Shown here one piece after another: positions 16,206 to 57,670 of a stretch of 64,000 bases of DNA. The translations under genes were made by a program, and so were the position numbers. The notes beneath the pieces are model-generated. The model saw only the letters and a list, made by a program, of their open reading frames with translations. It did no database searches and had not been told where the DNA came from. The DNA is from Candidatus Eiseniibacteriota bacterium (GTDB lineage: Bacteria; Eisenbacteria; RBG-16-71-46; CAIMUX01; VGJL01), in the NCBI GenBank assembly GCA_041946735.1, contig JBHGAY010000015.1, forward strand, positions 16,170 through 80,169. Reading direction: 5' to 3'. Numbering within the stretch: position 1 is the stretch's first letter; each line of letters opens with the position of its first letter.

Positions 16206-18059
16206 TTGAGCGGGATCTGCGGACAGTTCGGGCTCGAACCGCGCATTTTCGACGATCGGATCCTCGAGCGAATGCTGGCCCGCCTGGAGCACCGCGGGCG
16301 TCTTGCCGAGAGGATCCGCCGTCCCGACGCGAGCCTCGGGGTCTGCGACCCGGCCGGTCCGAACCGCTGGCCGCCGCGTGGCAGCGAGGACCCCTCCGAG
16401 ATCTGCGCCGTCCTCGATGGCAGGATCGACAACGCGGCCGATCTCGCGGCGGAGCTGGCGCGGGAGGGACACGCTTGCCCCGGCGCGAACCCGGCGGCTG
16501 TCGTGGCGATCGGAATGCGGGCACATGGGATCCCGTTCCTCCAGCGGCTGCAGGGGCTCTTCGCCGCCGCTGTCCACGATCCCGCCCGCAACGTCTCCTG
16601 GCTCATTCGGGATCCCCTTGGCATGCGCCCGGTCTATCTGCATCGCACCCGCTCGCGCATCCTCTTCGCCTCGGAGATCGGGGCGCTCTTCGCCGATCCC
16701 GTCGTCCGCTCCGACGTCGATCCCTCGCAGCTACGGGTGCTCCTCACGCTCGGGTTCATGCCGTCCCCGCTGACCTTGCTGAAGGGGATCCACAAGATGC
16801 CGCCGGGGCATCTGCTCGAGGTGAGCGGCGCCTCGCTGCGCGTCATCTCGTACGCCAAGAAGGGTCCCGGGGAGGACCTCGAACTCCCGTATGAGGACGC
16901 GCTCGAAGCGTACCGAGCGACCCTGCATCGGGTCGTGCGGCGTTCGGCCGGCGAGGAGACGGTCGGGGTGCTGCTGAGCGGCGGAGCGGACTCGTCGGCG
17001 CTCGTCCTGCTGCGGACGCGCGAGGGCAGGCCCGTTGCTTCGTTCACCGCCGGGTTCCAGGATGCCGGGGAGGAGGACGAGCGGGTCGAGGCGTGGCAGG
17101 CGGCGCGAGCGCTCGGCACGCTCCATCGAGAGACGACGATCCGCGCGGTCGAGATCCCTTCGCTCCTCTCGTCGGTGGCGCGAACCATCGACGAGCCGGT
17201 CGCCGCTCCTTGGATGGCTCCGTTCTACAGGCTGGCGGCTTCGATCGAGGGACAGACGCCGGTCGTCTGGTCCGGCCAGGGGACCGGTTCGCTGCATGGC
17301 GAGTCGCCGGTCTGGCGCTGGAGGCAGTGGGGGGAGTGGGTCAGCGAGCTGCCGCCGTTCGTGGCTGGCGTCGTCGGCGGCGTCAGCCGGACGCTGGGCC
17401 GCCTCGATCGAGCCGCGGCCACCCGCAACCACCGCATGGTCGCTTCCAGGGAAGAGAGGGAGCGGGTCCTCTCCGCGTTCTTCCTCTTCGAGGACGCCGA
17501 GCTGGACCGGCTGCTGCGGGCCGGCCACATCGGCGATCGGGAGGCGGCGCGCAAACTCCTCGATCGGTGGCGCGAACCGGTGGCGGATCGCGATCCGCTC
17601 GATCAGTCGCTCTACATCTACGCGCGGACGCACCTGCCCGACGGGGTGCTGCTGCCGGCCGAGCGGCTCGCCTCCGAGCACGGCCTCTTCCTGCGCTTCC
17701 CCTACGCGGACCCGGAGGTCGTGCAATGGCTCGAGCGGCTGCCCGCGTCCTATCGGTTGCAGGGGGGAGCCGGGAAGCGGCTGCATCGCGATGCGCTCGC
17801 GGCATGGCTTCCGGCCGGCGTCCTCGCGCGGCCGAAGCGGCAGCTCGGCGACCTGACGCGGCTGTGGCTGCGGACGGGCGGGCGCGAGCAGGTGTCGCAG
17901 TGGCTTCTCGGCTCCGCCGCCTGGCTGCCGTCGGTGCTGGACGGCGTACGCGTCCGCGGGCTGCTCGAGGAGGCTTCGCGCGGGCGGATCGAGCGGATCG
18001 TCCTCTTGATCCACCTCGAACTGTGGATGCGCGAGATGCTCCAGGGAGGAGGACGGTGA
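16206..18059 (+). CDS. asnB: Asparagine synthetase B-like amidotransferase (glutamine-hydrolysing, class II GATase plus synthetase domain)
   Basis: 617 aa. An Ntn-GATase N-domain is followed by the PP-loop SGGADSS ATP pyrophosphatase motif. It starts at TTG with Cys at position 5 (MSGICGQ) rather than position 2. Confidence 0.8.
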   Translation: MSGICGQFGLEPRIFDDRILERMLARLEHRGRLAERIRRPDASLGVCDPAGPNRWPPRGSEDPSEICAVLDGRIDNAADLAAELAREGHACPGANPAAVVAIGMRAHGIPFLQRLQGLFAAAVHDPARNVSWLIRDPLGMRPVYLHRTRSRILFASEIGALFADPVVRSDVDPSQLRVLLTLGFMPSPLTLLKGIHKMPPGHLLEVSGASLRVISYAKKGPGEDLELPYEDALEAYRATLHRVVRRSAGEETVGVLLSGGADSSALVLLRTREGRPVASFTAGFQDAGEEDERVEAWQAARALGTLHRETTIRAVEIPSLLSSVARTIDEPVAAPWMAPFYRLAASIEGQTPVVWSGQGTGSLHGESPVWRWRQWGEWVSELPPFVAGVVGGVSRTLGRLDRAAATRNHRMVASREERERVLSAFFLFEDAELDRLLRAGHIGDREAARKLLDRWREPVADRDPLDQSLYIYARTHLPDGVLLPAERLASEHGLFLRFPYADPEVVQWLERLPASYRLQGGAGKRLHRDALAAWLPAGVLARPKRQLGDLTRLWLRTGGREQVSQWLLGSAAWLPSVLDGVRVRGLLEEASRGRIERIVLLIHLELWMREMLQGGGR

Positions 18060-19528
18060 AACATCGCGTCCCGCGTGCGGCGTTTCCGCTCCTTCCGCTC
18101 CCTCCGCTGCTTCTGCTGCTTCCCGCCCTCTGGCTTCTCCGGCCACCCGCTGCGTCGGCGCGGGTGCTCCACGTCGAGCAGGCGGGTGCCGGCCGGCCGC
18201 GGGGCGTCTTCACCGAGGTGCAGGCGGCGATCGACGCGGCGGCCGACGGCGACACGATCCGGATCGGAGAGGGCCTGTTCACGGCGAGCACGGCCGCGTC
18301 GATCGTCGATCCGCTATGCGGCAACTGCCTCGAGCATCGGACGCCGGTCGCGGCGACGGCCGGATTCCGGATCGCCGGCGCGCGGCGGCTGGCGCTGATC
18401 GGAGCGGGCGCGGAGCGGACCGTCCTCTCCACCGGCGCCGGCTACGGCATCTGGATCGACGGCGGGGGCGGCGGCGAGGTGCGAGTCGAGCATCTCGCGG
18501 TCACGGGGGGCGCGCGCGACGCCGACGGCAACGCGACCGATGCCGGGGTCGTCGTGCGCGGCGCCCGCGTCACGCTCGAGCAGGTGCACGTGCGCGACAA
18601 CACCGCGCGCGCGGCCGACGAGAAGGTGGTCGTCGGCATCGCGGGCGTCGTGGGGCGCGAGGGGGCGGTGCTCGAGGTCGCCGGCTGTCGCATCGAGAAC
18701 AACGGCTGGGACGGGATCGCGCTCTACCGGGGAGCGACGGCGCTGATCCACGACAACGTGATCGAGCAGGGACGCGGCGCTGGGATCGGCATCACGTGGG
18801 ACGCCGCGGCGATCGTCCTGCGCAACCGAGTCTCCGGCTACTGGAAGGGGATTGGGACGTTCGGCAGCTCGCGCGCCGTCGTCCGCAACAACGCCGTTTT
18901 CGACAACCTGGGGTGGGGGATAATCGCGACCGGCGGCTCCTACCTCGAGGCGACGCAGAACGTGATCGTCCGCAACGGCAACTGCGGCTTCGCCGTCTGG
19001 GACTCCGCCGCAACCGGCACGGCCCGCAACAACCTCATCGTCGACAACGGATGGCGCAAGGAGTGGGTCTGCCCGAGGGTCGGCATCTGGCACGTGGGCG
19101 ATCCCGCGCGCTTCACCGTCCCCTGGAACGCGGCGTGGCGAAACGTGGCGGGGGATCTCCGGGTCGAGGGAGCGGGGGAGGCGGGCGCGGGAGCCCCAAC
19201 CGGCGCCGCGGCGGCCGCAGGGGAGGGCGGGGGAGCCGCGGCGGACACGTCCGTGGCGCGGCCGATCTCGATCGATCCGCTCTTCGAGGGAGCGGCCGAC
19301 TTCCGGCTGCGGGCCGGAAGCCCAGCCATCGACGCGGGAGATCCCGACATCCAGGATGCGGACGGCTCGCGCTCCGACCTCGGTCTCGGCGGGGGATCGC
19401 AGGCGCGCGAGCATCTTGGCGCGCCTCCGCCCGCGCTGCCGGCCGAGCGCAACCGCGTCGGTTCGGCCGCCTGGGCGGCCACGATCGCTTCGAGGCGAGC
19501 CGCCCGGAGTCCGCAGCACAGTCCGTGA
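18056..19528 (+). CDS. Secreted right-handed parallel beta-helix repeat protein (pectate-lyase/NosD-like fold)
   Basis: Its GTG start overlaps the asnB-like stop in a GTGA. AGGGAGGAGGA lies upstream. A signal peptide LLLLLPALWLLRPPAASA is present. Repeated N-x-I/V and D-N-G-W motifs (NNGWDGIALY, RNNAVFDN, VRNGNCGFAV, IVDNGW) mark the beta-helix. Confidence 0.75.
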   Translation: MKHRVPRAAFPLLPLPPLLLLLPALWLLRPPAASARVLHVEQAGAGRPRGVFTEVQAAIDAAADGDTIRIGEGLFTASTAASIVDPLCGNCLEHRTPVAATAGFRIAGARRLALIGAGAERTVLSTGAGYGIWIDGGGGGEVRVEHLAVTGGARDADGNATDAGVVVRGARVTLEQVHVRDNTARAADEKVVVGIAGVVGREGAVLEVAGCRIENNGWDGIALYRGATALIHDNVIEQGRGAGIGITWDAAAIVLRNRVSGYWKGIGTFGSSRAVVRNNAVFDNLGWGIIATGGSYLEATQNVIVRNGNCGFAVWDSAATGTARNNLIVDNGWRKEWVCPRVGIWHVGDPARFTVPWNAAWRNVAGDLRVEGAGEAGAGAPTGAAAAAGEGGGAAADTSVARPISIDPLFEGAADFRLRAGSPAIDAGDPDIQDADGSRSDLGLGGGSQAREHLGAPPPALPAERNRVGSAAWAATIASRRAARSPQHSP

Positions 19529-31598: not shown

Positions 31599-32402
31599 GT
31601 GGACATTCTCAAGCGGGCTCTCGCTCCCATCACCGACCTCGCCTGGACCGAAATCGAAGCGGTCACTGCGAGCGCGCTTCGTACGCACATGATCGGCCGC
31701 CGGATCGTCGACGTCAGCGGACCCCACGGGTGGGACTTCGCCGCGATCGGTCTCGGCCGCCTGGACGTCGACCGGCAAAGCCTCGACGAGGTCTATTTCG
31801 GCGTCCATCAGGTGCAGCCGCTGGTCGAAGTACGTGTTCCCTTTTCGCTCGGGATCTGGGAGCTGGACAACGTGACGCGCGGCGCCGCCGACGTCGATCT
31901 GACGGCTGCGATCGACGCGGCGAAGCGGATCGCCGACTTCGAGGACGGCGCGATCTTCAACGGCTTCGAGAAGGCGAAGATCCAGGGTCTGCTTCACGCC
32001 TCTCCGCATCCCGCGATTGCCGTTCGACCGGACTCGGGGTCGCTCCTGGAGGGCGTTTCGAAGGCGCTCCTGGCGCTTCTCGACGCCGCGGTGCAAGGCC
32101 CCTACGTCCTCGTCCTCGGCCCGCGCCTCTTTCAGACGCTCGCCAACACTGCCTCCGGCTATCCGTTGCGCAAGCAGGTGGAGCAGCTCCTCGAAGGGAA
32201 AGCCATCTACCGGTCCGTGATCGAGGGAGGCGCGCTCGTCTCGAAGCGCGGGGGAGATCTGGAGCTCACGATCGGGCAGGACATCTCCCTCGGATATGAA
32301 TCACACGACACCAAACAGGTCCGCCTCTACCTGACCGAATCGTTCACGTTCCGGATTCTCGACCCTTCGGTCGCCGTACCGCTCACGCTCGCTTCCTCGT
32401 AG
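31599..32402 (+). CDS. Family 1 encapsulin nanocompartment shell protein (HK97 fold, linocin M18-like)
   Basis: GTG start 1 nt after the EncFtn stop, with AAGAGGAGG 5 nt upstream. MDILKRALAPITDLAWTEIE is the canonical encapsulin N-terminus. 267 aa. Confidence 0.85.
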   Translation: MDILKRALAPITDLAWTEIEAVTASALRTHMIGRRIVDVSGPHGWDFAAIGLGRLDVDRQSLDEVYFGVHQVQPLVEVRVPFSLGIWELDNVTRGAADVDLTAAIDAAKRIADFEDGAIFNGFEKAKIQGLLHASPHPAIAVRPDSGSLLEGVSKALLALLDAAVQGPYVLVLGPRLFQTLANTASGYPLRKQVEQLLEGKAIYRSVIEGGALVSKRGGDLELTIGQDISLGYESHDTKQVRLYLTESFTFRILDPSVAVPLTLASS

Positions 32403-32963: not shown

Positions 32964-33289
32964 CGGCTCGTCATCGGCTTCGATGATCCGCTTGGTGGCC
33001 GCCTTGCGGACGCGAACGCCAGGAGATCGGCCGGAGTGGCGAGCGCCCTCCGGTCGATCGGCGTCTCCCTGCACGTCCTTTCTCCCCGCACGCCCTTTCT
33101 CTCTGCACGACCCTTTCTTCTCGCGCGGCTCTCCCCGCACGACGGTTCCTCCCCGCGCGACCATTTCTTATCTGAGCGCCGCGAAGCCCCTCCGGGCGCC
33201 GGCGGGCCGGCCATCCCGTCCTCGGGAGGGAGTCCGCATCCGCCCGGTGGCGCGCCTTCGTGCTGTAGAATCGACCTGGGAGGTTTCCG

Positions 33290-33787
33290 ATGGAGTTCGT
33301 GCCGTCTCGAGCGCAAGCGCACCTCGTCGTCGCCGCTGTCCGTGTGCTCAGCCATACGAAGAAACGCCCTCCGACCGCCGAGGAAATGTCCGAGCTTCTC
33401 GGGATCGGACGGGAGGTCATCCTGCATCTCGCCCGGGGTCTGGAGGCGAAGCAGATCCTTCGCGCCATCCAGAACCCGTTCGAGCTGCGATGGGATCTCG
33501 AAGATCCCAGCCGCATCGACGAGCTTCCGATGGCCGCCTCGGGACCGGACATGGGACGCGAAATCGAGGACTTCCACCGGCGGGCCGAGGACCGGCAGAA
33601 GAAAATCGAGCGAATGATGCGGGACACGGACCCGGAGAGGTCCTCGCGCGAGAAGGCGCAGAAGATCGAGGAGGAGTTCCGGCGTTTTCGCTCGGATCGA
33701 AGCAAGCGCTCGATCTTCGGTCCCGCGGGCGGGAGCGACGGCCGGCCGGAGGAGAATGCGGAGGAGGAAGGGAAGGACCGGGAGTGA
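33290..33787 (+). CDS. Hypothetical charged protein, 165 aa
   Basis: GGAGG RBS. Coding-like codon usage with lower GC and a highly charged C-terminal half. No family recognised. Confidence 0.5.
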   Translation: MEFVPSRAQAHLVVAAVRVLSHTKKRPPTAEEMSELLGIGREVILHLARGLEAKQILRAIQNPFELRWDLEDPSRIDELPMAASGPDMGREIEDFHRRAEDRQKKIERMMRDTDPERSSREKAQKIEEEFRRFRSDRSKRSIFGPAGGSDGRPEENAEEEGKDRE

Positions 33788-35242: not shown

Positions 35243-38200
35243 TCACCGCGACGGACCGCCCGCCTCGACCGACCCCGATCGCGACACCGACCCGGATCGC
35301 GTAGCCGCCCCCGGTGATCGGGAGGCGCCGAGCAGTGCTGCGGCCTCCTCGACGACCGCCGAAGCGCCGCCGCGACGCTCTTCGCCTCCGCCTGCCGCCG
35401 CCGCGGCGGCCGCCCCGCTCCATCGCCGCAGCATCCCCTGGCTGTCCAGGTAGGCCTCGACGCGCGTCAGCATGCCTGCGTCGTTCGCGTGGCCGTCGAA
35501 CTGCAGGGTCAGGAAGGCGCGCCCGAAGGCGTCGCGGACGAAATGCTTGATGTAGGAGTCGGGGCCGCACTTGAAGTTCGTAATGTAAATGAGGTGGAGG
35601 CGCTCGCGGCGCGAGGCGACGATCGCCGCCGCGAGGATCTTCCTTCCATAGGCCCAGTACATGTTCGCATTGACCGCCTCGATGTCGGCGTCGCCGGAGG
35701 CGAGGAACTCGAGCGGCACCACGTTCGCCCCGTAGAGATCGCGGAGCTTGCGCGGCACGTCGAGGTTCACGACGGGGTCGAAGAGGTTGTACGGGCGGCC
35801 GGCCAGAAGGACGGCCGGCTCTCCGCTCGCATCCAGCTCCCGCATCGCCGTCTCGCCCGCCTCTCGAATCCTCCTCCGAAAGAGGGCGAGAGCCTCCTCA
35901 CCCGCGGCCAGGCCCCGCTTCACGGCCCCCTTCCGCACTCCATAGCGCCGGAGGGAATCGTGCAGCGGATCGACCAGCGCCCGCGGGCCGGCCTGGATGC
36001 GGAGTAGCGGGTGGACGATCCGTTTGGCCTGCGCCTCGAACCCGGCCGCCGCGCGCACGACGTAGGGGATCGTCATCCCCCAAGGACAGCAGAAGCTTTC
36101 GATCTCGTCGTGCGTCCGCTCTGTGTTGATCAGGTTCGGCAGGAAGACGAAGTCGGTCTCGGGCATTTCGAGCGCGAGCCGGACGTGGCCGTGGGCGACC
36201 TGGATCGGGAAGCAAGGCTCGGCGACCGCCGCCTCCACTCCATCGTGCGCGATCGATCGGTTCGTCTCCGGCGTCAGGCGGACCCCGAAGCCGGTCTCGC
36301 GCAGGAAGGCGTTCCAGAACGGAAACCGGTCGAAGAAGTAGAGGGAGCGCGGGAAGGCGACCGTGCCGCGTGGGCCGCTACCCGGCTCGTACCCCTCGAG
36401 GAGCCACTCCTTTCGCAACCGCACGAGATCGTCGATGACCGGCTCGTACTGGACCCGCGCCCGGCGCCTGTAGCGATCGCCGCACTGGTCGCCCCAGAAC
36501 GTCTTCTCTCCCTCGACCCGGAACTCCTGCATGTCGCAGCGGTTCTCGCACCCCTGGCACGTGAACTCCCGGATCCGGTAGTCGACGGTGCCGAGGTCCC
36601 ATCCACGGAACCGCGATGGCGCTCCGGAATCCGCGTTCGCCTTCTCCCAGGCGAGCAGGGCCGCGCCCACGGCTCCGACGACTCCGTTGTAGGGAGGGAC
36701 GATGATCTCCCGGTCGAGAATCTGCGCAAAAGCCGCTGCGACGGCGTCGTTGTAGGCCGTCCCCCCTTGGAAGAAGATCACGCCGTCGATCTTGCGGCCG
36801 CGCACGACGCGGTTGATGTAGTTCGTCGCGACCGAGAGAGCGAGTCCGGCCAGCAGATCCTCGGTCGACGCGCCACGCTGCTGGTAGGCGTTGACGTCCC
36901 GTTCCATGAAGACCGTGCAGCGTTCGCCGAGGCGCACGGGGGAGGTCGACGCGAGCGCCCGGCTCGCGAACTCCCCCTTGATGCAGACTCCCAGCTCCTC
37001 CGCCCGCTCCTCGAGGAACGACCCGGTGCCGGCCGCGCACGCTTCGTTCATCGCGAAGTCGACGACGATCCCGTCCTCGATGCGGATGTACTTCGCGTCC
37101 TGCCCGCCGATCTCGAAGATCGTATGGACCGGTGAGCCGAGCATCGTCCGCGCGATGAAGCTCGCGCCGGTCTTGTGAGCGGTGATCTCGTCGTTCACGG
37201 TGTCGGCGCCGACCAGCTCACCGATCAGCTCGCGACCCGAGCCGGTCGTCCCGACGGCCCGCACGGCGATCCGTTTTCCCAGCTCGCCGCGCAGCTCCGC
37301 GAGCGCCGCGGTGACGACCTCGATCGGCCGTCCCTGCGTGCGCGTGTAGATCTCGCGCACGATCTGGCCTTCGCGCGTCAGAAGAACCACGTTCGTGCTG
37401 ACCGACCCGATGTCGATTCCGAGAGCGACCTCGACCGGAGAGCCGTTCCCACTCGACGGCATCTCGTAAGGGAGCACGCGGTCCCGAAGCGCGATGACCT
37501 TGCCGAGGTCGAGCGGGCGGGCGCGCGGCATCGTGTCCGAGCCGAGGGACGCCTCCGACACTCGCTCCAGATCGAGAGGATGGTGCACGGCGTCGCTCGC
37601 TTCGAGGATTGCGCATCCGATCGCGGCATGCGCCGCGTGATGCTCCGGGACGATCAGGTCTTCGTCGAGATCGAAAACGTCGCGCAGCGCGCGCACCACC
37701 ATCCCATTGGCCGCGACCCCGCCGACGAGTAGAACCGGCGGCCGCGGGGTCCGTCCTTTCACTACGGCGGCTCGGAAGTTGCGCGCGACGGTTTCACAAA
37801 GTCCCCGGAGCACCTCCGGGGGCGAGTAGCCTTTCTGCTGCGCGTGGATCATGTCGCTCTTCGCGAAAACGGAGCAGCGCCCGGCGATCTTGGCGGCCCG
37901 CTCGCTCGCGAGCGCGATCGCGCCCAGCTCCTCGACCTCGTAGCGCAGTCGCCCTGCCTGCTGATCGAGGAACGAGCCGGTTCCGGCAGCGCAGTCTCCG
38001 TTGGTTGCGTAATCGGCGATCCCCAGCTCGCCCGATCCTGGGTCCCGCTCGAAGAAGAGCGCCTTCGAGGACTCCCCGCCGATTTCGAAGAGCGTCCGCA
38101 CCTCGGGTGCCAGGGCGCGCGTCGCCGCCGCGAGGCAGCGGAAGTCGTTCTCTTCCGGGATTCCGAAGCGCTCGCGAAGCAGGCGGGCTCCCGAGCCGGT

Positions 38201-38467
38201 CACACGGACCCCGTCGAACGCGCGGCCGCCGGCGCTCTCCCGTATCCGCTCCACGAGGAGCCGGGCGGCCTCGAGCGGACGTCCGTGGGTGCGCCGGTAG
38301 GTGGTGACGCGGAGAGATGCCGGCCCTCCGCCGGGAAGCTCGATATCGAGGAGGTCGGGGGACCAGAGATCCCCCGACGGCTCCTCGCGACGCTCCCGAT
38401 CCTCGCCGATCTTCAGCAGGGCGGCCTTGATGCTGACCGCGCCGATGTCGAGTCCCAAGTACAGCAA
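35243..38467 (-). CDS. CoA-substrate-specific enzyme activase: two tandem BadF/BadG/BcrA/BcrD-type ATPase domains plus a C-terminal DUF2229 domain
   Basis: Two ASKHA ATPase modules, each with LGIDIGxxS...EIGGxxxK...ACAAGTGSF motifs, are followed by about 470 aa of DUF2229 (CPWG, NFKCGPDS). A TTG start is proposed at 38467 with AGGAG 8 nt upstream. The first 45 aa of the track ORF are rejected. Confidence 0.75.
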   Translation of the reverse strand: MLYLGLDIGAVSIKAALLKIGEDRERREEPSGDLWSPDLLDIELPGGGPASLRVTTYRRTHGRPLEAARLLVERIRESAGGRAFDGVRVTGSGARLLRERFGIPEENDFRCLAAATRALAPEVRTLFEIGGESSKALFFERDPGSGELGIADYATNGDCAAGTGSFLDQQAGRLRYEVEELGAIALASERAAKIAGRCSVFAKSDMIHAQQKGYSPPEVLRGLCETVARNFRAAVVKGRTPRPPVLLVGGVAANGMVVRALRDVFDLDEDLIVPEHHAAHAAIGCAILEASDAVHHPLDLERVSEASLGSDTMPRARPLDLGKVIALRDRVLPYEMPSSGNGSPVEVALGIDIGSVSTNVVLLTREGQIVREIYTRTQGRPIEVVTAALAELRGELGKRIAVRAVGTTGSGRELIGELVGADTVNDEITAHKTGASFIARTMLGSPVHTIFEIGGQDAKYIRIEDGIVVDFAMNEACAAGTGSFLEERAEELGVCIKGEFASRALASTSPVRLGERCTVFMERDVNAYQQRGASTEDLLAGLALSVATNYINRVVRGRKIDGVIFFQGGTAYNDAVAAAFAQILDREIIVPPYNGVVGAVGAALLAWEKANADSGAPSRFRGWDLGTVDYRIREFTCQGCENRCDMQEFRVEGEKTFWGDQCGDRYRRRARVQYEPVIDDLVRLRKEWLLEGYEPGSGPRGTVAFPRSLYFFDRFPFWNAFLRETGFGVRLTPETNRSIAHDGVEAAVAEPCFPIQVAHGHVRLALEMPETDFVFLPNLINTERTHDEIESFCCPWGMTIPYVVRAAAGFEAQAKRIVHPLLRIQAGPRALVDPLHDSLRRYGVRKGAVKRGLAAGEEALALFRRRIREAGETAMRELDASGEPAVLLAGRPYNLFDPVVNLDVPRKLRDLYGANVVPLEFLASGDADIEAVNANMYWAYGRKILAAAIVASRRERLHLIYITNFKCGPDSYIKHFVRDAFGRAFLTLQFDGHANDAGMLTRVEAYLDSQGMLRRWSGAAAAAAAGGGEERRGGASAVVEEAAALLGASRSPGAATRSGSVSRSGSVEAGGPSR

Positions 38468-38649
38468 GAGAGGCGCTCCTGAACGGTCTCCCTGCCGCGC
38501 AGGTCGAGACCCGGCCGGTCCATACGAACGAGGGCGGCCAACCGGGGCTGAGAATACGTTCGGCCTGATGCGTTGGCAAGGACGCCCGACCGGTCGCCGC
38601 ATCGCAGCTCCATGCCCGCCGATGCCCGCCGGCGGGCCGTGTCAGGCCC

Positions 38650-43687: not shown

Positions 43688-43844
43688 CCCCGATTGACGC
43701 CCTTCCCCTGGGTTCCCTACTCTCTCCTTCGTTCGCATGCACGGCGCTGCGGCGCCAGGCCGGCTGCCCGCGATTCCTTTGGGGGCCGGGAGGGTCGGGT
43801 TGGAGTCAACCGCTTGCGGCGCAAGCGGTTCGAGGAGGTGGATC

Positions 43845-45026
43845 GTGAAGCGCAACGTCGTGTCGATGCCGGGAGACGGAATCGGGAAGGTCGTCCTCCC
43901 CGAGGCGATCCGAGTCCTGGACGCGGTCGGGTTCGAAGCGAACTACATCCATGGCGATATCGGCTGGGAGTTCTGGTGCAGCGAGGGCAACGCCCTCCCG
44001 GACCGGACCATCTCGCTCCTCGAGGAGCACAAGCTCGGCCTCTTCGGCGCGATCACGTCCAAGCCCAAGGACAAGGCGGAGGCGGATCTCTCGCCAGCGT
44101 TGAAGGGGAAGGGGCACGTCTACTACAGCCCCATCGTCACGATGCGGCAGAAGTTCGATCTCGACATCTGCATCCGCCCCTGCATCGCCTTCGAAGGCAA
44201 CCCGCTGAACTGGATCCGCAAGGACGGTCGCGGGAGCATCGAGGAGCCGAAGGTCGACGTCGTGATCTTCCGGCAGAACACCGAAGGGCTCTATAGCGGC
44301 ATCGAGTGGACGAACCCGCCCGAGAACGTCCGCGCCGCCCTCGCGAGCCATTCGAAGTGGAAGATGTACCAAAAGGTCGCAGGACCGGATCTCGCCGTGT
44401 CGACGCGCGTCATCACGCGCCCAGCCGCCGAAAGGATCTGCCGCAACGCGTTCGAGTACGCGAAGAAGTTCGGCTACAAGTCGGTGACGATCTGTGAGAA
44501 GCCGAACGTCCTTCGTGAAACCTCCGGGATGATGGAGTCCGTGGCGAAGCAGGTGGCGAAGGACTTTCCGGGCATCCCTCTCTGGTCGGTGAACATCGAC
44601 GCGCTCATGATGTGGCTCACGAAGAACCCCGAGGCGTACGGGGTGATCGTGGCGAGCAACATGTTCGGCGACATCATCAGCGACGGCTTCGCGGGATTGG
44701 TCGGCGGGCTCGGGTTCGCATGCAGCGGCAACATCGGCCGCAATTGCGCGGTCTTCGAACCGACCCACGGGTCCGCGCCGAAGTACGAGAAGCTTGATCC
44801 TTCGATCGTCAATCCGATCGCGATGATCCTTTCCGCGGTGATGATGCTCGAGCACGTCGGGGAGACCGCGAAGGCTTCGCGGATCAAGAGCGCGATCGCC
44901 GCAGTGATCCGCGAGGGGAAAGTCCGTACATACGACATGATGCGGCTCACGGGCGGCCCCGACGTGTTCGGGAAGGGCGCCGTGACCACGCAGCAGATGA
45001 CCGACGCAATCCTGGCACATCTCTAG
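43845..45026 (+). CDS. Isocitrate/isopropylmalate dehydrogenase-family beta-decarboxylating dehydrogenase
   Basis: GTG start with GAGGAGG upstream. The N-terminus is MPGDGIGKVV. The signature is NMFGDIISD, and the dimerisation and active-site Asp residues are present. About 393 aa. Confidence 0.75.
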   Translation: MKRNVVSMPGDGIGKVVLPEAIRVLDAVGFEANYIHGDIGWEFWCSEGNALPDRTISLLEEHKLGLFGAITSKPKDKAEADLSPALKGKGHVYYSPIVTMRQKFDLDICIRPCIAFEGNPLNWIRKDGRGSIEEPKVDVVIFRQNTEGLYSGIEWTNPPENVRAALASHSKWKMYQKVAGPDLAVSTRVITRPAAERICRNAFEYAKKFGYKSVTICEKPNVLRETSGMMESVAKQVAKDFPGIPLWSVNIDALMMWLTKNPEAYGVIVASNMFGDIISDGFAGLVGGLGFACSGNIGRNCAVFEPTHGSAPKYEKLDPSIVNPIAMILSAVMMLEHVGETAKASRIKSAIAAVIREGKVRTYDMMRLTGGPDVFGKGAVTTQQMTDAILAHL

Positions 45027-45138
45027 TCCATCGACCGTCTGTCGATCGATCGTCTATTGATCGTCCATCGATCGTCGTCCGTCGTCGTCGGGTCGTCGAC
45101 CGGCCGCTCTCCTCGGCCGGCAATGGGGGAGGTGGAGG

Positions 45139-46356
45139 ATGCCACACGCTGCCGAGGCGGGGCGCCGCGGAGCGGACGTTCGCTCGGACTGCTGGATCTC
45201 GATCACGCCCGAGTCCTCGGGCGGCGCGCGTCTCTCGATCCGGAGCAAGGTCGCTGCGATGTACGGAGGCGCAATCCAGGAGCAGATCGCGTCAGGGCTC
45301 GCGGAGCTTTCCATCCGTGACGCGACGGTCGAGGTCGAGGATGCCGGCGCGCTCCCGTGGGTCATCGCCGCTCGTCTGGAAGCGGCCGCCCGGCGCGCCT
45401 ACGGGCCAGCGCTTGCCGGGCGCCTGCTCCCTCCCGCGAGTCCCGGGGCGAGCGCGACGACGGAGCGGGAGCGCTTCCGGCGCTCGCGCCTCTACCTACC
45501 CGGCAACGAACCGAAGTTCATGGTCAACGCCGGCCTGCACGGCGCCGACGGCATCATCCTCGATCTCGAGGACTCGGTAGCGCCGGCCGAGAAGGACGCG
45601 GCGCGGCTCCTCGTCCGCAACGCGCTCCGGTCGGTCGACTTCGGCGCGTGCGAGCGGATGGTCCGGATCAACCAGCTGCCGATGGGCTTCGACGATCTCG
45701 AGGCGGTGATCCCGGAGAACGTCCACGTCGTCCTGATCCCGAAGTGCGAGTCGGCGCAGCACGTGCACGACGTGGAGGCGAAGATCCGGAGCCTCCGCCG
45801 CTCCGACGATCCGCAGGTCTTCCTGATGCCGATCCTCGAGACGGCGCTCGGAGTCTTGAACGCCTTCGAAATCGCGACGGCGAGCCGGGCGATCGTGGCA
45901 CTGACGATCGGACTGGAGGACTACACGGCGGACATCGGGACCGCGCGCACCGAGCAGGGAGCGGAGTCGCTGTGGGCACGCTCGATGGTGATCAACGCCG
46001 CGCGCGCGGCCGGCGTCGCCCCGATCGACAGCGTCTACTCGGACGTGATGAACACCGAGGGGCTGCGGGCGAGCGTCCTCGAGGCGAAGGCGCTCGGGTT
46101 CGAGGGGAAGGGCTGCATCCATCCCGGGCAGATCCGCGTGATCCACGAGGGGTTTGCCCCTACCGCGGCCGAGATCGAGCGGGCGACGAAGATCGTTCGC
46201 GCGTTCGAGGATGCCGAGGCGAAGGGGCTCGGGGTGGTGTCGCTCGGAAGCAAGATGATCGACGCCCCGGTCGTGAAGAGGGCGAACCGGACGGTTCGCC
46301 TCGCGATCCGCTCGGGGAAGCTCGCGGAGGGCTGGAGGGACGCGCAGCAGGCGTGA
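45139..46356 (+). CDS. Fusion of citrate lyase acyl-carrier subunit (CitD) and citrate lyase beta subunit (CitE, HpcH/HpaI citryl-CoA lyase)
   Basis: The N-terminal 95 aa are CitD-like (RSDCWISI around the prosthetic-group Ser; IAARLEAAARRA). A Pro/Ala linker follows, then CitE (RRSRLYLPGNEPKF...LDLEDSV...PKCES...LETALGV...IGLEDYTADIG). No internal start codon separates the two. The RBS is GGAGGTGGAGG. Confidence 0.7.
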   Translation: MPHAAEAGRRGADVRSDCWISITPESSGGARLSIRSKVAAMYGGAIQEQIASGLAELSIRDATVEVEDAGALPWVIAARLEAAARRAYGPALAGRLLPPASPGASATTERERFRRSRLYLPGNEPKFMVNAGLHGADGIILDLEDSVAPAEKDAARLLVRNALRSVDFGACERMVRINQLPMGFDDLEAVIPENVHVVLIPKCESAQHVHDVEAKIRSLRRSDDPQVFLMPILETALGVLNAFEIATASRAIVALTIGLEDYTADIGTARTEQGAESLWARSMVINAARAAGVAPIDSVYSDVMNTEGLRASVLEAKALGFEGKGCIHPGQIRVIHEGFAPTAAEIERATKIVRAFEDAEAKGLGVVSLGSKMIDAPVVKRANRTVRLAIRSGKLAEGWRDAQQA

Positions 46357-46414
46357 ATCGGCTCGCGGCCGGCTGCCCGCAGGGGGGGAGGGGCCGGAGG
46401 GGGAGAGGGAAGCG

Positions 46415-47974
46415 ATGGCGCAGAAGCTGGTCAAGAATGCGGTAGGTCGGGAAGTCCCGGTCGAGATCAACGGAGAGCCTGCGGTCGCCTACCAGGGGGT
46501 CGGGAAAGACCGGCCGTCCGGACGGCGCGCGGCGCCGCCGATCGCCACCTGCGCGGACTATCCGGCCGACGGGAACAAGATCGTGCCCGATCTGCGCGCG
46601 GCGCTCGAGAAGGCCGGGCTGCGCGACGGGATGACGATTTCGACGCACCACCACTTCCGCAACGGCGACCTGGTCGGGAACCGCGTGTTCGACATCGCGG
46701 CCGAGATGGGCGTGAAAGACCTGCGGTGGTTCCCGAGCGCCTCGTTCCCTTGCCACGCGCCGATGATCCGGCATCTCGAGAGCGGCGTGATCCATCACAT
46801 CGAGGGGTCGATGAACGGTCCGCTCGGCGACTACACCTCGCAGGGGAAGATGCGCGGCATGGCGGTGCTCCGCTCGCACGGCGGCCGCTATCAGGCGATC
46901 CAGGACGGCGAGGTCCATGTCGACATCGCCGTCATCGCGGCGCCGGAGGCCGACCCGTTCGGCAACGCGAACGGCCTCCATGGCCCATCAGCCTGCGGCG
47001 GCCTCGGGTTTGCCGTTGCCGACGCGGAGTACGCCGATCGCGTCGTGGTCGTCACCGACAACCTGGTCCCGTTCCCGTGCGTGCCGTGGCAGATCAGCGG
47101 CAACCGCGTCGACTCGGTCGTCGTCGTCGACCGGATCGGCGACCCGGCGCAGATCGTCTCCGGGACGACGCAGATCACCCGCAGCCCGGACCGGCTGCTG
47201 ATCGCCGAGATGGTCGCCCGCTTCCTGGACGCGTCCGGGATTCTGCGCGATGGCTTCTCCTTCCAGGCAGGGGCCGGCGGGACGGCACTCGCCTTCGCGA
47301 TCTACCTAAAGGAGATGATGAAGGAGCGGGGGATCCGGGCCCGCTTCATCCGGGGAGGCTCGACGAAGTACCTGGTCGAGATGCTCGAGGAGGGGTTGAC
47401 CGATTACATCCTCGACGGGCAGACCTTCGACCTCTTCGGCGTGCGCTCGATGGGGACGAACCCGCGCCACGTGAACACGACGCCGTTCACCTCCTACAAC
47501 TATCACGGCAAGGGGAACTTCGCCTCGATGGTCGACGCGGTCGTGCTCGGAGCGACGGAAGTGGACGTCCACTTCCACGCGAACGTCGTCACCCACTCCG
47601 ATGGCCGCCTGCTCCACGGAATCGGTGGATGGCAGAACTGCCTGTTCTCCGGATGCACGATCCTCGCGCTCCCTTCGTTCCGCGATCGCATCCCGGTGAT
47701 CCTCGATTCCGTGACCACGTTGTGCGGCCCCGGCGAGCTGATCGACGTGATCGTCACGGAGCGCGGGATCGCGATCAATCCGCGCCGGACCGACCTGCTC
47801 GATGCCGTCCGTGGAAGCGATCTCCCGATCCGCATGATCGAGGAGATCCAGGCGGACGTCGACCGGATCTGCGGCGGGCGCCCGACGAAGGCGAGGATGG
47901 GGGAGAAGGTCGTCGCGGCGATCAAGTGGGTCGACGGGACGGTGATCGACTCGGTGAGGCAGGTGCTCGCGTAG
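46415..47974 (+). CDS. citF: Citrate lyase alpha subunit (citrate CoA-transferase, CitF)
   Basis: 519 aa with CitF-family motifs throughout (DGMTISTHHHFRNGD, SMNGPLGDY, GGWQNC). It lies immediately downstream of the citDE fusion. Confidence 0.8.
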   Translation: MAQKLVKNAVGREVPVEINGEPAVAYQGVGKDRPSGRRAAPPIATCADYPADGNKIVPDLRAALEKAGLRDGMTISTHHHFRNGDLVGNRVFDIAAEMGVKDLRWFPSASFPCHAPMIRHLESGVIHHIEGSMNGPLGDYTSQGKMRGMAVLRSHGGRYQAIQDGEVHVDIAVIAAPEADPFGNANGLHGPSACGGLGFAVADAEYADRVVVVTDNLVPFPCVPWQISGNRVDSVVVVDRIGDPAQIVSGTTQITRSPDRLLIAEMVARFLDASGILRDGFSFQAGAGGTALAFAIYLKEMMKERGIRARFIRGGSTKYLVEMLEEGLTDYILDGQTFDLFGVRSMGTNPRHVNTTPFTSYNYHGKGNFASMVDAVVLGATEVDVHFHANVVTHSDGRLLHGIGGWQNCLFSGCTILALPSFRDRIPVILDSVTTLCGPGELIDVIVTERGIAINPRRTDLLDAVRGSDLPIRMIEEIQADVDRICGGRPTKARMGEKVVAAIKWVDGTVIDSVRQVLA

Positions 47975-48012
47975 CCGCGCCGCGCCGCACCGGGACGCGG
48001 GAGGAGCGCCAG

Positions 48013-49053
48013 ATGCCTGGCCGTCCGGGATTCCGGTTTCCGCTCGCAGCCTTGGCGTGCGCTGCCTGCCTCCTTGCCTGTGTTCCCGGCCCGCCGGCTG
48101 CGCGCGCCGATTCGACGATCGAGCTGCGCCGCTCTCCCCTCGTCGACCTCGAGTCCTACCTGCGGGCGCTGGCCGGCGAAGGCGACTCGCTTCTCCCGTC
48201 CGATCTGCCGGGGATCGCGCCGGCCGTCGAGCGGGTCCGGGCGCTGGATCGCGCGCTCGGCAGCCCTCTCGCCTGGGGCGCGCTCGAAGGCAACCTCGTC
48301 GGGGTCGAGACGGCGGCCGAGGCGCGCGAGCGGTTCACGAGCCTTCCCGAGAGCGCGATGGTCGCTCCCGGCCGCAAGCTCGCGATCCGGGCAGAGGCGC
48401 TTGCGCTCGCGGATCACCTTGCGGCGCTCGAGCCGGCGTTCCTCGTCTCCGTCTGGCCCGAGCATCAGGTCGCGATCGATCGCGCCTGCCTGCAGATCGA
48501 GCGGGACCTGCTGCCGCGGCAGCAGGAGTGCTTCGCGCGGATCGAGGCCGACCTCGGACTTACGCCATCCCCCGAGCCGATACCGGTCTATCTGGTCGCG
48601 CGGTCTCCCTGGCCGCACGGCGTCACGCACCGGACCCATCAGGGTGGGGGTGTCTGCTGGATCGGCGCCGACGGCGACTCGGGAGGACTCCTGATCGAGA
48701 CGATCCTGCACGAAGCGACCCACGCCCTCGACGTTCGTTCGCGCGAAGGCGTCCTCGCCGAGCTGCGCGCGAGGCTCGCCGCCTCGCCCCTGCAGGGCAG
48801 CCCTTCGCGGCAGCGGGACATTGCGCACACGCTGATCTTCGTGGAGGCAGCCGAGACGGTGCGCCGCGTGCTCGACCCGCAGCACATCGATTATGGAGAG
48901 GCCTCGGGCTACTATGCGCGCGTCGGGCGGGTGGCCGAAGTCGAAAGGACGATCTGGCGTCAGCACCTCGATGGACGCGTGAGCCGCGAGCAGGCGATCG
49001 CGGCGATCGTCGACAGCCTTGCGCCGGCGCTCGCCTCTCCTGTGGGGCAGTGA
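48013..49053 (+). CDS. Hypothetical lipoprotein with an HExxH motif; a putative zinc metallopeptidase-like protein
   Basis: GGGAGGAG is the RBS. The signal and lipobox read LLACVPG. HEATHALD lies in a helical context. No confident family was recognised. Confidence 0.5.
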   Translation: MPGRPGFRFPLAALACAACLLACVPGPPAARADSTIELRRSPLVDLESYLRALAGEGDSLLPSDLPGIAPAVERVRALDRALGSPLAWGALEGNLVGVETAAEARERFTSLPESAMVAPGRKLAIRAEALALADHLAALEPAFLVSVWPEHQVAIDRACLQIERDLLPRQQECFARIEADLGLTPSPEPIPVYLVARSPWPHGVTHRTHQGGGVCWIGADGDSGGLLIETILHEATHALDVRSREGVLAELRARLAASPLQGSPSRQRDIAHTLIFVEAAETVRRVLDPQHIDYGEASGYYARVGRVAEVERTIWRQHLDGRVSREQAIAAIVDSLAPALASPVGQ

Positions 49054-49170: not shown

Positions 49171-50403
49171 CTACATCTTCTCGGCGTGCTCCCCTTGCGC
49201 CTGCGCCTGCGGTTGGGCCGGACCCTTGCCTTCGAGCAGGTAGGCGATCTCCGCGTCGAGCGTCTCCTCGCCTCCCTCGGCGAAGCCGAGATGGCGGAAG
49301 ATCACCCGCCCGTCGCGATCGATGACGAGGTTGTACGGCACGCCCTCGAGCGAGTAGAGGTCGTGCATCTTCTTGTCGACATCGAGAACGATCGGGAAGG
49401 TCGCGCCCACCTTCTGCACGAACTCCCTTGCGAGCTGCGGGCGGTTGGTGGTCTCCACCGAGAGGATCGTGAAGTCGTCGCCGCCGCGCCGCGCGTAGAT
49501 CTGCTGCAGGTGTGGATACTCCACACGGCAGGCGCCTCAGGTCGGATGCCAGAAGTTCAGCAGCACGACCTTCCCGCGAAGCGATGAGAGCGACAACGGC
49601 GTGCCGTCGGCGAGGGTCGGAAGGGTGAAGTCCGGGGCTTCGAATGCGTTCGCAGCGCGCGTCGCTTGGATCGAAGCATCGACATCCGCCATTGATTCGC
49701 CCTTCTCCGCGACGATCTTCTCCAGATTCTGCCGGAGCTTCGGGCTCTCCTGATGCCCGAGCAATGCGACGTAGATCTCGCGCGCCTCGTCGTCCCGTCC
49801 GGCCGCATCGAGGATCAGCGCGGCGTGCTCCTCGATCTCGTCGATCGGCTGGCCGTAGATCTTGCGCGCCTCGAGAATCGGTTCGGCCGCCGCCGCGGCG
49901 TCTCCCTTCTTGTAGAGAGCCCATGCATAACTGTCGAGCACCGAGGCGATGCCGTTGGAGTCCCCCTCCGCCCGCGCCTTCGCGACCCCCTTCTCGAGGA
50001 TCGGAACCGCGAGGTCGAGATGCTGCTCGCGCTCGGCGAGATCCCAGCCGACCGAGTTGTAGGGCGCGGCCGAAGGGAAGTCAGTCTTCAGGAACTGCTG
50101 CAAGGTAGATTGCACCGACTCGGGTCGATGCTCCAGCTCGAGGGGGACGAGTCGCGCATACGCCTCCGCCGCCTGCTCGCTGTGAGGATGCTCCTTCAGA
50201 AACTGCTCGAGCGCCGCCATCCTGGCCGATTCGTCTTCGAGGCCGGCCGCTTGTGCGTATACCGCGCTGTCGGCAGCCGCACTGCCCGTTCCGCCCGCCG
50301 TTCGGTTCTCCCCGGAGCAACCGGCGAAGAGCGGGACAGCGAGCAGAGTCGTGAGCGCGGCCCCGACGATCCATCTCCATTGTTCGACACGCGTCATTTC
50401 CAC
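49171..50403 (-). CDS. TlpA/ResA-like thiol:disulfide oxidoreductase lipoprotein with a TPR-like N-domain; a candidate selenoprotein with in-frame TGA at 49537-49539 (U-G-A-C motif), or alternatively a pseudogene
   Basis: Two track ORFs, 49537..50403 and 49171..49524, are in the same frame and separated only by a TGA. Read through it gives ...KVVLLNFWHPT-U-GACRVEYPHLQQIYARRGGDDFTILSVE..., which is the thioredoxin-fold W-C-x-x-C motif with its first Cys codon replaced by UGA. A 7-bp-stem hairpin GUGUGGA-GUA-UCCACAC lies 10 nt downstream with G and U in the apical loop, which is bSECIS-like. Confidence 0.55.
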
Positions 50404-50776
50404 CTCTCGTTTTGTTGCCTTCGACAGCGTCCCGTAGCAGGTCCCGACGCCACCGGCCGGCCGTTACGAACCTGGCATTCTAGCCGCTTCCTCGCGCTCC
50501 CGTCATCCGATCCTTCCGCGAATCGGCCGAGACGGATGACTCGGACGTTCCTGCTCTCCGGTCTTTGAACCGGGTTCGCGGTTGCCGGGAGGAGTTTCTT
50601 CCCGGGTGGGTGAAATCGTATCGCTCCCGCGCGCGCTTCGCGGTCGCGTGACGCTGCCAGGGAAAGAGACACGTGCCACAGACCGGCAAGAAGAGCGCCA
50701 GACCTTCTCGGGAAGGCCTGGCGCGAGGTTGCTCGAGTGTTGGAAGGAGGGTGGGTGGGGGTCAGTGAACTCCTTG

Positions 50777-51154
50777 TCAGTTGTTCTGCGCTTTCTCGGC
50801 CTTCTCCTGGCACTTCAGACAGAAGCGGGCGTAGGGCAGCACTTCCAGGCGCCGTTCGGCGATCGGCTTGCCGCACCATTCGCACAGCCCGTAGATTCCC
50901 TCGTCGATGCGTCGGATCGCTTCCTCGATCTCGTTCAGCAGGCGGCCTTGCGCGTCGACCATCAAGTAATCGGACTCACGGTCGGCCTCTTCGGTCGCGG
51001 CCTCCGCCATATGACTCGCGAAGGCGCCGCCCTCCTCGAGGTACGCCTGGGAACGCTCCGTCGCCGACTTCTTCATCTGACCCAGGAGACGTCCTCTCTG
51101 TCCCAGCTCGTCCAGCAACCGCTGGCGGATACGCAAGGTGGTGTTGGCGTCCAT
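50777..51154 (-). CDS. DksA/TraR-family C4 zinc-finger protein
   Basis: It starts MDANTTLRIRQRLLDE with GAGGAGGA as the RBS. The coiled-coil is followed by CEWCGKPI...CLKCQ. The upstream 45 aa of the track ORF are rejected. Confidence 0.8.
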   Translation of the reverse strand: MDANTTLRIRQRLLDELGQRGRLLGQMKKSATERSQAYLEEGGAFASHMAEAATEEADRESDYLMVDAQGRLLNEIEEAIRRIDEGIYGLCEWCGKPIAERRLEVLPYARFCLKCQEKAEKAQNN

Positions 51155-51468
51155 CGTTCTATCCTCCTCGCCCGGGCGACACCGGCGCGTTTGCTTCGGC
51201 CTCTCGGTGGCGGGTCTTCCTGGCCCGGCACCCGTCGCCGGCCGGCCATTTTCTTTCGAAGTCCGTGTATGTACCTTCATTCGCTTCACAAGGTCCCGGG
51301 ATTTTCCCCTTCCTTCTGCAAGATGGGGGCCAGGATGGCGCGGGGCCGCGAGCGGTAGCGGTGTGCTGCCCCATCCGGGTATCTTGGTGCCGGATCGACG
51401 GATCGGAGAGGACCGCGGCGGGATGACGATTGCATGAAGGTCCCACAGGTACAGGGCGGGAGGGTCGA

Positions 51469-56926: not shown

Positions 56927-57055
56927 GCCGACCAGCCGGGATCGCACCGGTCCGGCCGGAGACCGCCGCCGACTGTGCCGCGGAGTCGCGCTCGAGCGGC
57001 ATCCAGCAAGCTGCGGCCGGGGGGCTCTGATAGACTGGGCGAGGAAGGAGAACCG

Positions 57056-57670
57056 ATGACCCGTTTCGCCCGGATCCTGTCGCTGGCCGCTCTCGTCCTG
57101 CTCCTGGCTTCGGCCTTCTCCACGCTCTCCCGCGCTCAGCAGGAAGGGCCCAAGCTGCCTCCCGAGAAGGAGGCGGTGGCGCAGAAGATCTTCAACGAGC
57201 TCATCTCTCCCTGCTGCTGGACGACCACCGTCGCGCAACACGGCTCCGGGGCGGCGCCGAAGATCCAGGCCGAGGTGCGGCAGATGCTGGCCTCGGGCAT
57301 GACGCACGACGCGATCATCGACCGGTACGTGAAGGAGTACGGGGAACGCATCCTCGCCAAGCCCGAGCGGAGCGGCCTGAACCTCGTCGTCTACTGGATC
57401 CCGTACCTCGCGCTGGTCGGTGGGGTGGCCGCGATCTGGGTGGCGTTCCGCCGCCGGCGCGGCCGTGAAGGCGGACGTCCCGCCCTCGCGCGCGTCGACA
57501 GGACGGGGGAGCGACAGGCGCCGATCGAGAAGCGCGGGCGCCCGCCCGTCGCCATCCGGCCGTCGCCGTCCGCGTCCTCACCGACGCCGTCACCGTCGCC
57601 TGCGCCCGTTCCAGGAACCGAGGAGGACTACCGAAGGCGTCTCGAGGAAGAGGTGCGCCGCATCTCCTGA
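57056..57670 (+). CDS. ccmH: Cytochrome c-type biogenesis protein CcmH/NrfF family
   Basis: Signal peptide. The CcmH Cys pair context ELISPCCWT, then a TM anchor and a Pro/Ser-rich C-terminus. RBS GAGGAAGGAG. Confidence 0.65.
   Translation: MTRFARILSLAALVLLLASAFSTLSRAQQEGPKLPPEKEAVAQKIFNELISPCCWTTTVAQHGSGAAPKIQAEVRQMLASGMTHDAIIDRYVKEYGERILAKPERSGLNLVVYWIPYLALVGGVAAIWVAFRRRRGREGGRPALARVDRTGERQAPIEKRGRPPVAIRPSPSASSPTPSPSPAPVPGTEEDYRRRLEEEVRRIS

Follow-up and report, generated by a model that had tools for sequence, protein, structure and literature searches.

Gene organization at the locus

The window analysed here, a stretch of 64,000 nucleotides (64 kb) of contig JBHGAY010000015.1 from a Candidatus Eiseniibacteriota bacterium, carries on its minus strand two open reading frames (ORFs), 50403..49537 and 49524..49171, which lie in the same frame and between which the sole stop is the TGA at 49539..49537. 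This arrangement had been described in a first-pass annotation made from the letters alone, and it is borne out by the sequence and by the ORF listing. Translation through the stop gives ...GKVVLLNFWHPT-[TGA]-GACRVEYPHLQ..., or, over a longer span, SLRGKVVLLNFWHPT before the TGA and GACRVEYPHLQQIY after it. The likely start is the ATG at 50397, with GAGAGGTGG just upstream, and the same start is found in the public protein P0001. Counted from this ATG, the UGA is codon 287 of 408 and the cysteine that follows it is residue 290. On the sequence comparisons described below, the region 50397..49171 (minus strand) is read as one gene encoding a selenocysteine (Sec)-containing protein, with a probability of roughly 0.9.

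In GenBank, the same region is recorded as two coding sequences (CDSs), namely MDM7916315.1 (286 aa, hypothetical protein) and MDM7916314.1 (117 aa, TlpA family protein disulfide reductase, with GTG 49524 as its start). A second public record pair, MFB3908728.1 and MFB3908727.1, is split likewise. A scan of the window for further gene pairs separated by an in-frame TGA returned none. The features of the gene and of its surroundings are collected in Table 1.

Conservation of the UGA codon among relatives

The closest relatives of the gene end where its first ORF ends. Searched with the read-through protein, the databases gave 23 closest proteins (34-58% identity, 280-315 aa) that all terminate at ...NFWH[PY][TN], and one relative, P0018 (431 aa), that reads on as NFWHPT-C-GPC-RAEFPHLE. 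At the DNA level, 22 related loci at 32-58% identity, for the most part from metagenome-assembled genomes of Candidatus Eisenbacteria, were compared. They come from nine genomes that each represent a species, five of which carry the label Candidatus Eisenbacteria, from twelve metagenome contigs and from the contig of P0018 (hereafter L010), and they include 19 distinct TGA-form sequences. The first-pass annotation had pointed to orthologues with TGC or TGT at this codon as the sign of an error or a pseudogene, and the outcome is the opposite, the homologous codon being TGA in 21 of the 22 orthologous loci and TGC in L010 only.

The part lying downstream of the TGA behaves as translated sequence in all loci. 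Each of them continues for 104-125 in-frame codons, with no indels across the first 100 or so, and both the resolving cysteine and a cis-Pro loop of the form G-[TV]-P-[TY] show conservation. Between pairs of sequences, differences amount to 0.38, 0.29 and 0.48 at the first, second and third codon positions respectively, a ranking (position 3 > 1 > 2) typical of coding-type divergence. The same 1861 nt, including the TGA, recur in a second public assembly, GCA_030372885.1.

A lone in-frame stop in a metagenome-assembled genome is a frequent artefact, and the two CDSs of the GenBank record would be expected if the TGA stood for a TGC or TGT cysteine codon that had been misread in sequencing or assembly, or that had recently been inactivated by mutation to leave a pseudogene. 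This explanation has to account for a TGA shared at this one codon by 21 of 22 loci that were assembled independently of one another, for an intact downstream frame under coding-type constraint in all of them and for identical DNA in the second assembly. Given the conserved TGA and the constrained frame behind it, it is effectively refuted and keeps hardly any probability.

A true stop at the UGA would instead leave a 286-aa tetratricopeptide repeat (TPR) lipoprotein and a separately initiated thioredoxin-fold fragment of 117 aa starting from GTG 49524, as in the public annotation, and a GTG does exist four codons past the TGA in the window. The division would, however, fall between strand beta1 and the active-site helix, with loss of the nucleophile, and the G-A-C-R codons between the TGA and the GTG, including that of the resolving cysteine, are conserved. 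Furthermore, 11 of the 19 distinct sequences of the TGA form have GCG (Ala) where the window has GTG, which thus is not a conserved start, the spacing between the two parts is always zero and always in frame, and the Cys homologue is a single ORF. Two separate proteins are therefore highly improbable.

L010, whose Cys form provides a Sec/Cys pair with the TGA forms, is the one Cys form found within the close clade, and on the tree it is nested among the Sec forms. The published criteria for selenoprotein genes are a TGA conserved in at least two homologues, the existence of Cys homologues and a structure resembling the bacterial selenocysteine insertion sequence (bSECIS) (PMC1088965, PMC12013277). 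The gene displays a conserved TGA, homologues with an aligned Cys, a translated downstream part and a bSECIS-like structure, the last of which is considered now.

A conserved hairpin downstream of the UGA

Following a spacer of 10 nt after the UGA, the mRNA can form a 7-bp stem GUGUGGA/UCCACAC (49526..49520 with 49516..49510) closed by a GUA loop, at the distance and with the length given in the first-pass annotation. Beneath it lies a lower stem of 4 bp, CUGC/GCAG (49531..49528 with 49507..49504).

The bSECIS model of Zhang and Gladyshev is summarized as four constraints in the legend of Fig. 2 of a 2026 review (PMC13188914), and the hairpin agrees with all of them. The model calls for a loop of 3-9 nt on a stem of 4-16 bp, and the element has a 3-nt loop on 7 bp. 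A G is expected in the first two loop positions, typically as N1-G-[G/U]-N-N2, and the window reads A-G-U-A-U with the A and the U paired; the loop G21 and U22 do not vary among 22 sequences. The distance from the UGA to the apical loop should be 16-37 nt and is 17 nt (10-nt spacer plus 7-nt arm) in every family member. Finally, the minimum free energy, set at -7.5 kcal/mol or lower, is -14.8 kcal/mol for a 40-nt fold and ranges from -13.1 to -25.2 kcal/mol across the TGA-form members. With the SECIS elements of E. coli fdhF and fdnG, the hairpin shares its position within the CDS just 3' of the UGA and a small apical loop with a G followed by a U. Unlike the fdhF element, it is of unrelated sequence, has a loop of only 3 nt (5 nt if the A-U pair opens) and shows no evident bulged U.

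The motif GUG[U/C]GGA-GU[A/U]-UCC[A/G]CAC is kept in 21 of 21 TGA forms. In an alignment of the 48 nt starting from the UGA, these 17 nt are almost invariant, and adjoining synonymous sites vary (GGC/GGA/GGG/GGT, CCC/CCA/CCT/CCG and CTG/CTC/TTG). Among the seven pairs of the upper stem, five are invariant, one has two mismatched cells and one covaries, so that a single pair is informative. At this pair, 17-27, 8 of the distinct sequences have U:A, 11 have C:G and none is unpaired, and on a neighbour-joining tree the switch between the two states arose at least three times independently. When the 3' partners of the 12-pair structure (the upper stem and a 5-pair lower stem) are slid by 1-3 nt, pairing falls from 87% to 32-57%.

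The codons used in the hairpin are rare ones. CGT accounts for 8% of Arg codons, TAT for 18% of Tyr codons and CCA for 6% of Pro codons, and their joint probability given the peptide is 1.5e-4. A natural control is offered by L010, whose Cys form (1414-1480) reads CGC GCC GAG TTC CCC CAC where its nearest Sec relative, L020 (229-300), reads CGG GCG GAG TTT CCG CAC. Both encode the peptide R-A-E-F-P-H, and the four synonymous differences, all of them to C-ending codons in L010, abolish the stem in the Cys form. L010 thus looks like a case of codon relaxation following a Sec-to-Cys change. Taken together, the comparisons indicate that the hairpin is under selection as RNA. The family thereby illustrates how a SECIS located within a CDS can constrain the choice of codons and even of an amino acid, since the two sides of the covarying pair change together, a Val/Ala replacement (GUG/GCG) on one side being matched by CCA/CCG, synonymous for Pro, on the other, whereas the same codons are relaxed in the Cys form.

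Domain architecture of the predicted product

The N-terminus, read from the translation, consists of a predicted signal peptide and lipobox (MTRVEQWRWIVGAALTTLLAVPLFAG preceding the cysteine, with LFAG-C as the lipobox), with a conservation of at least 90% at G26 and C27 across the family. This agrees with the lipoprotein anchor proposed in the first-pass annotation, and the TPR-like domain proposed behind it is equally recovered. Indeed, an AlphaFold model of residues 1-286, built with the family alignment, has a pLDDT of 89 and shows a helix at residues 3-24, a disordered linker and then, from residue 37 to residue 249, twelve paired helices with pLDDT values of 96-98. The best PDB matches of this domain in Foldseek are the TPR lipoproteins LbcA, PilF and PilW, along with consensus TPR proteins, at TM scores of about 0.5, and its homologues carry Pfam TPR matches.

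When a Cys is substituted for the stop, residues 255-383 match the Pfam families AhpC-TSA and Redoxin (69 bits each against cutoffs of about 26, each with E of about 5e-19), and also Thioredoxin_8; the domain therefore spans the UGA. PDB sequence matches of the C-terminal domain include 3kcm, 3gl3, ResA and TlpA, with E values from 3e-24 to 3e-11. In these alignments, the UGA falls on the first Cys of WCxxC, as had been claimed at first for a TlpA/ResA-like fold and as is seen with both 3kcm and 3gl3. A model of the full-length Cys homologue (pLDDT 93) superposes its thioredoxin domain on the DsbE-like protein 3gl3 and on ResA with TM scores of 0.92-0.94 and rmsd values of 1.1-1.4. The active site reads W283-H-P-T-U287-G-A-C290, and the cis-Pro loop is G-V-P-Y in the window protein and G-T-P-T in relatives.

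A peroxiredoxin proper (AhpC/Prx) was considered and rejected, as the motif P-x-x-x-T-x-x-C(U) is absent and F-W-H-P-T-U stands in its place. The closest relatives are ResA, DsbE and TlpA, and the AhpC-TSA match is explained by the clan that these families share. With ResA of Bacillus subtilis, DsbE/CcmG and TlpA of Bradyrhizobium, the protein has in common the fold with its TlpA-type insertions, the position of W-x-x-x-C-x-x-C, the cis-Pro loop (GVPY/GTPT) and, as predicted from its N-terminus, an exported, membrane-tethered location; sequence matches within this group have E values of 1e-17 to 1e-24. It differs from them in having Sec for the first Cys, WHPT-U-GAC instead of W(A/G)(S/T)W-C-xPC and an added N-terminal TPR-like domain, and in that its gene has no neighbours for cytochrome c maturation or of the Sco/Cox kind. 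Proteins of the CnoX/YbbN type similarly combine a thioredoxin fold with a client-binding TPR domain, but they are cytoplasmic, have the opposite domain order and contain no Sec. From its sequence features, we infer that the product is an exported, lipid-anchored thiol-disulfide reductase.

Evidence for and against selenocysteine decoding

Several observations weigh against the reading of the locus as a selenoprotein gene. As regards the hairpin, its stability in the window sequence is not exceptional, since the 40-nt fold has a z-score of only -1.65, with 13 of 200 shuffled sequences equally stable, and a 66-nt fold has a z-score of -0.36. The lower stem, which the first-pass annotation had added as a possible 4-bp extension, is indeed present in the window, but it is poorly conserved, its pairs being formed in only 11-17 of the 19 distinct sequences depending on the position. 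Rfam gave no match at gathering thresholds, and in E-value mode only chance matches on 49440-49600, so that no independent model supports the element. Concerning the protein, all NCBIfam scores are below cutoff (ResA 76 against 170, TlpA 50 against 230, StoA 47 against 210 and DsbE 41 against 123), and no CcdA/DsbD gene lies nearby.

The machinery for Sec incorporation is likewise missing from the stretches scanned. No tRNA-Sec was detected by ARAGORN, which reported no tRNA genes whatever in the 64-kb window or in the loci L001-L009. No SelA, SelB or SelD domain was found by Pfam among about 30 ORFs of the window, the ORFs of L009 and two ORFs of L005, selB having been sought by Pfam only, in the window and L009. 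Across all of the loci, tblastn with approximate E. coli SelA and SelD sequences as queries returned neither selA nor selD. Two candidates were rejected. A weak SelD match by tblastn in L007 belongs to a ThiL-like kinase, and an apparent in-frame-TGA pair in L005 (3969-5999 and 6003-7349) consists of two adjacent unrelated genes.

Some of these points carry limited weight. The lack of significance of the single-sequence fold is due to the G+C content of the window (68%), and it is the comparison across loci, with its conserved TGA, covarying pair and rare codons, that sets the hairpin beyond chance. Little can be read from the null result with Rfam, given that the diversity of bacterial SECIS elements exceeds what one general model can cover.

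A second selenoprotein gene was identified on a related Eisenbacteria contig, L009, which also holds a copy of the Sec-form TlpA gene. At 5.7 kb from this copy, a formate dehydrogenase alpha subunit is encoded at 16038-19178 (+), scoring 1527 bits with NF041513 (cutoff 1400) and 919 bits with TIGR01553 (cutoff 814). Its frame contains a UGA at 16638-16640, at the canonical Sec position (SNQARV-U-HSSTV), and a hairpin GGUGCCC-GGUCU-GGGCACC starts 11 nt 3' of it. Its nearest database relatives are fragments of 820-890 aa split at the Sec codon, and the full-length Cys forms are actinobacterial. At least the member of the lineage represented by L009 therefore decodes Sec, as this is a classic Sec formate dehydrogenase.

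The UGA could also be read without selenium, whether by near-cognate insertion of Cys or Trp, by read-through stimulated by the hairpin or under a variant code. That the Sec machinery was not located in the stretches scanned fits this possibility, and downstream RNA structures are generally able to stimulate read-through. A change of the code is contradicted by the use of TGA elsewhere, for it is the commonest stop among the ORFs of the window (20 of 33) and also terminates this very gene in 8 of the 21 relatives that have the TGA form, which means that UGA is not reassigned. Read-through of the other kinds would have to explain why the UGA stands exactly at the redox Cys, why the Cys form is without the hairpin, why this hairpin fits the SelB-type SECIS model down to the loop G-U and the 17-nt spacing, and why a canonical Sec formate dehydrogenase is encoded on a related contig from Eisenbacteria. 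Selenium-free decoding is thus quite improbable.

Decoding of the UGA as Sec accordingly remains the preferred reading, and it is very probable that selenocysteine is in use in the uncultured phylum Candidatus Eisenbacteria, including in a redox protein predicted to be exported and lipid-anchored. A literature search found no paper mentioning both Eisenbacteria and selenocysteine.

Relation to known selenoproteins and extent of the family

Selenoproteins with a UxxC motif and the same domains are already listed under the names 'Prx-like thiol:disulfide oxidoreductase' (PF00578) and 'Redoxin family protein' (PF08534), next to a separate family of 'UGC-containing TlpA' selenoproteins (PMC13188914, PMC9312934), and the first reports of such UxxC selenoproteins are older (PMC1088965). 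UxxC selenoproteins of the TlpA/redoxin type being catalogued, the window gene is a further member that leaves the known kinds of bacterial selenoproteins unchanged. Compared by description, it shares with the catalogued redoxin-type proteins the Pfam domains AhpC-TSA, Redoxin and Thioredoxin_8, a U-x-x-C motif with the Sec on the N-terminal side, a SECIS directly downstream and the existence of Cys homologues. It differs in the lipoprotein signal and the TPR-like domain of about 210 aa placed ahead, in the predominance of Sec within its clade (21 of 22 loci) and in its origin from Candidatus Eisenbacteria. What is specific to the window gene is therefore the TPR-lipoprotein fusion, the prevalence of Sec over Cys forms in its clade, its phylum and the public annotation as two genes. 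Its second-best NCBIfam match, NF041054, describes a ResA-like WAxxUGC selenoprotein, which likewise has a TlpA/ResA-like fold and an active-site Sec; the score is 66.6 bits against a cutoff of 300, and NF041054 has W-A-x-x-U-G-C, with the Cys two positions after the Sec, versus WHPT-U-GAC in the window protein.

The first-pass annotation had expected a fusion of a Sec-containing TlpA with a TPR module to be uncommon, and this expectation did not hold. A search with a TPR-TlpA profile among 1.84 billion cluster representatives gave 30 matches at E <=1e-30 and 657 at E <=1e-10, from which the best 150 representatives of 50%-identity clusters (P0122-P0268 among them) were classified. In this set, 53 stop after a W and three residues (FWHPT, FWSYG, FWFPT, FWKPG) and about 14 more after variants of the NF[FMS]SPT type, so that about 67 of the best 150 stop at the same codon. 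The more distant Cys forms are represented by 44 TPR-redoxin cluster representatives of the set that carry WxxxCxxC, mostly as FWATWCGPC, and the residues preceding Sec differ systematically from those preceding Cys. One remote member, L023, was checked as DNA and is the sole one for which this was done. It shows NFWKPG-TGA-NTCSAELPHLQ with the TGA at 11564-11566, an in-frame continuation and a hairpin, GUGCGG-AGUUG-CCGCAC, that resembles the one in the window.

The stops of about 67 of the 150 representatives, together with L023, argue that TPR-TlpA proteins with Sec are common in metagenomes. It is a more tentative proposal, and one that is rather doubtful on present sequence comparisons, that the window gene represents a clade, large and unrecognised, of exported TPR-TlpA lipoproteins for which Sec rather than Cys is the normal state. 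If this were true, bacteria of soils and sediments would share a widespread selenoenzyme system of extracytoplasmic location, with the TPR domain selecting the substrate, and the conserved peptide E-[YF]-P-H beside the active site would be dictated in part by an RNA element rather than by protein function. Dozens of relatives are split in public records in the same way as the window gene, and a selenoprotein model of the NCBIfam type for this family would consequently repair many records.

Proposed mechanism

The following course of synthesis and action would fit the features of the gene. On arrival of the ribosome at the UGA (49539..49537), the hairpin located 10 nt downstream would serve as a bacterial SECIS and recruit SelB·GTP·Sec-tRNA(Sec), so that Sec would be inserted in place of termination and translation would proceed through the thioredoxin fold for the 121 codons that remain. 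The product would then be exported and lipid-anchored at Cys27. In its active site, nucleophilic attack would come from Sec287, which would be joined to Cys290 in a selenenylsulfide. The most likely activity is the reduction of disulfides, or possibly of sulfenates or peroxides, in extracytoplasmic client proteins, for which the TPR domain may be the client- or partner-binding module. Re-reduction would be expected from a membrane electron donor of the CcdA/DsbD type.

Genomic surroundings

Table 1. Coordinates of the predicted selenoprotein gene, its parts and its upstream neighbours in the window.
Feature	Coordinates	Strand	Basis and remarks
Predicted selenoprotein CDS	49171..50397	-	408 codons, stop TAG 49173..49171, one in-frame UGA; lipoprotein signal, TPR-like domain and TlpA/ResA-like thioredoxin-fold domain
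Predicted Sec codon TGA, residue 287, replacing the first, nucleophilic Cys in U-G-A-C	49537..49539	-	Homologous codons and structure-family alignment
Codon TGC of Cys290, resolving Cys of UxxC	49528..49530	-	Invariant in 23/23 family sequences
SECIS-like element within the CDS	49503..49532	-	Overlaps codons C-R-V-E-Y-P-H-L-Q of the active-site helix
Predicted signal peptide and lipobox (...LLAVPLFAG-C27)	50320..50397	-	Translation; family conservation
All-alpha TPR-like domain, residues ~37-249, 12 paired helices	49651..50289	-	AlphaFold, Foldseek, Pfam TPR matches of homologues
TlpA/ResA/DsbE-like thioredoxin-fold domain, spanning the UGA	49255..49641	-	Pfam, PDB sequence matches, model of the Cys homologue
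DksA/TraR-type zinc-finger gene, upstream	50777..51289	-	Pfam zf-dksA_traR; adjacency kept in 7 loci of the closer clade
Terminator-like hairpin after the DksA-like gene	50724..50695	-	Terminator-site search
Sigma-70-like promoter match ATGACG-18-TAGAAT, ~80 nt before the start codon	50477..50506	-	Consensus match only, 1 found versus 0.1 expected

Upstream of the gene, the DksA-like gene is followed divergently by a QueD-like gene. Downstream and convergent with it are an orphan ORF (47950-49050) and then genes for CitF, CitE and isocitrate dehydrogenase. In the closer clade, one again finds the succession QueD, DksA-like, selenoprotein gene and CitF-CitE-isocitrate dehydrogenase, which probably reflects shared ancestry and not function.

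The orphan ORF (+ strand) encodes about 367 aa, among them a HEATHALD motif, is signal-like at its N-terminus, matches neither Pfam nor NCBIfam and is absent from the syntenic loci of the relatives. The genes behind it, at 43698-47971 (+), encode an isocitrate/isopropylmalate dehydrogenase, then a CitE with an N-terminal acyl carrier protein segment of MdcD/CitD-like type, and CitF; this group is conserved in L001, L004 and L012.

A gene at 56927-57667 (+), on the upstream side of the TlpA-like gene and about 6.5 kb from it, encodes CcmH, a protein of cytochrome c biogenesis, and is present in L004 too. It may be relevant to a role resembling that of ResA/CcmG.

Farther away, the window contains an encapsulin shell gene at 31599-32399 (+) (Linocin_M18, E 3e-82), followed by a 172-aa ORF at 33269-33784 (+) that has no family match. 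At 35246-38641 (-), a protein of 1132 aa is encoded in which an ATPase of the BadF/BadG/BcrA/BcrD type is fused to DUF2229, an arrangement of the CoA-enzyme activase type.

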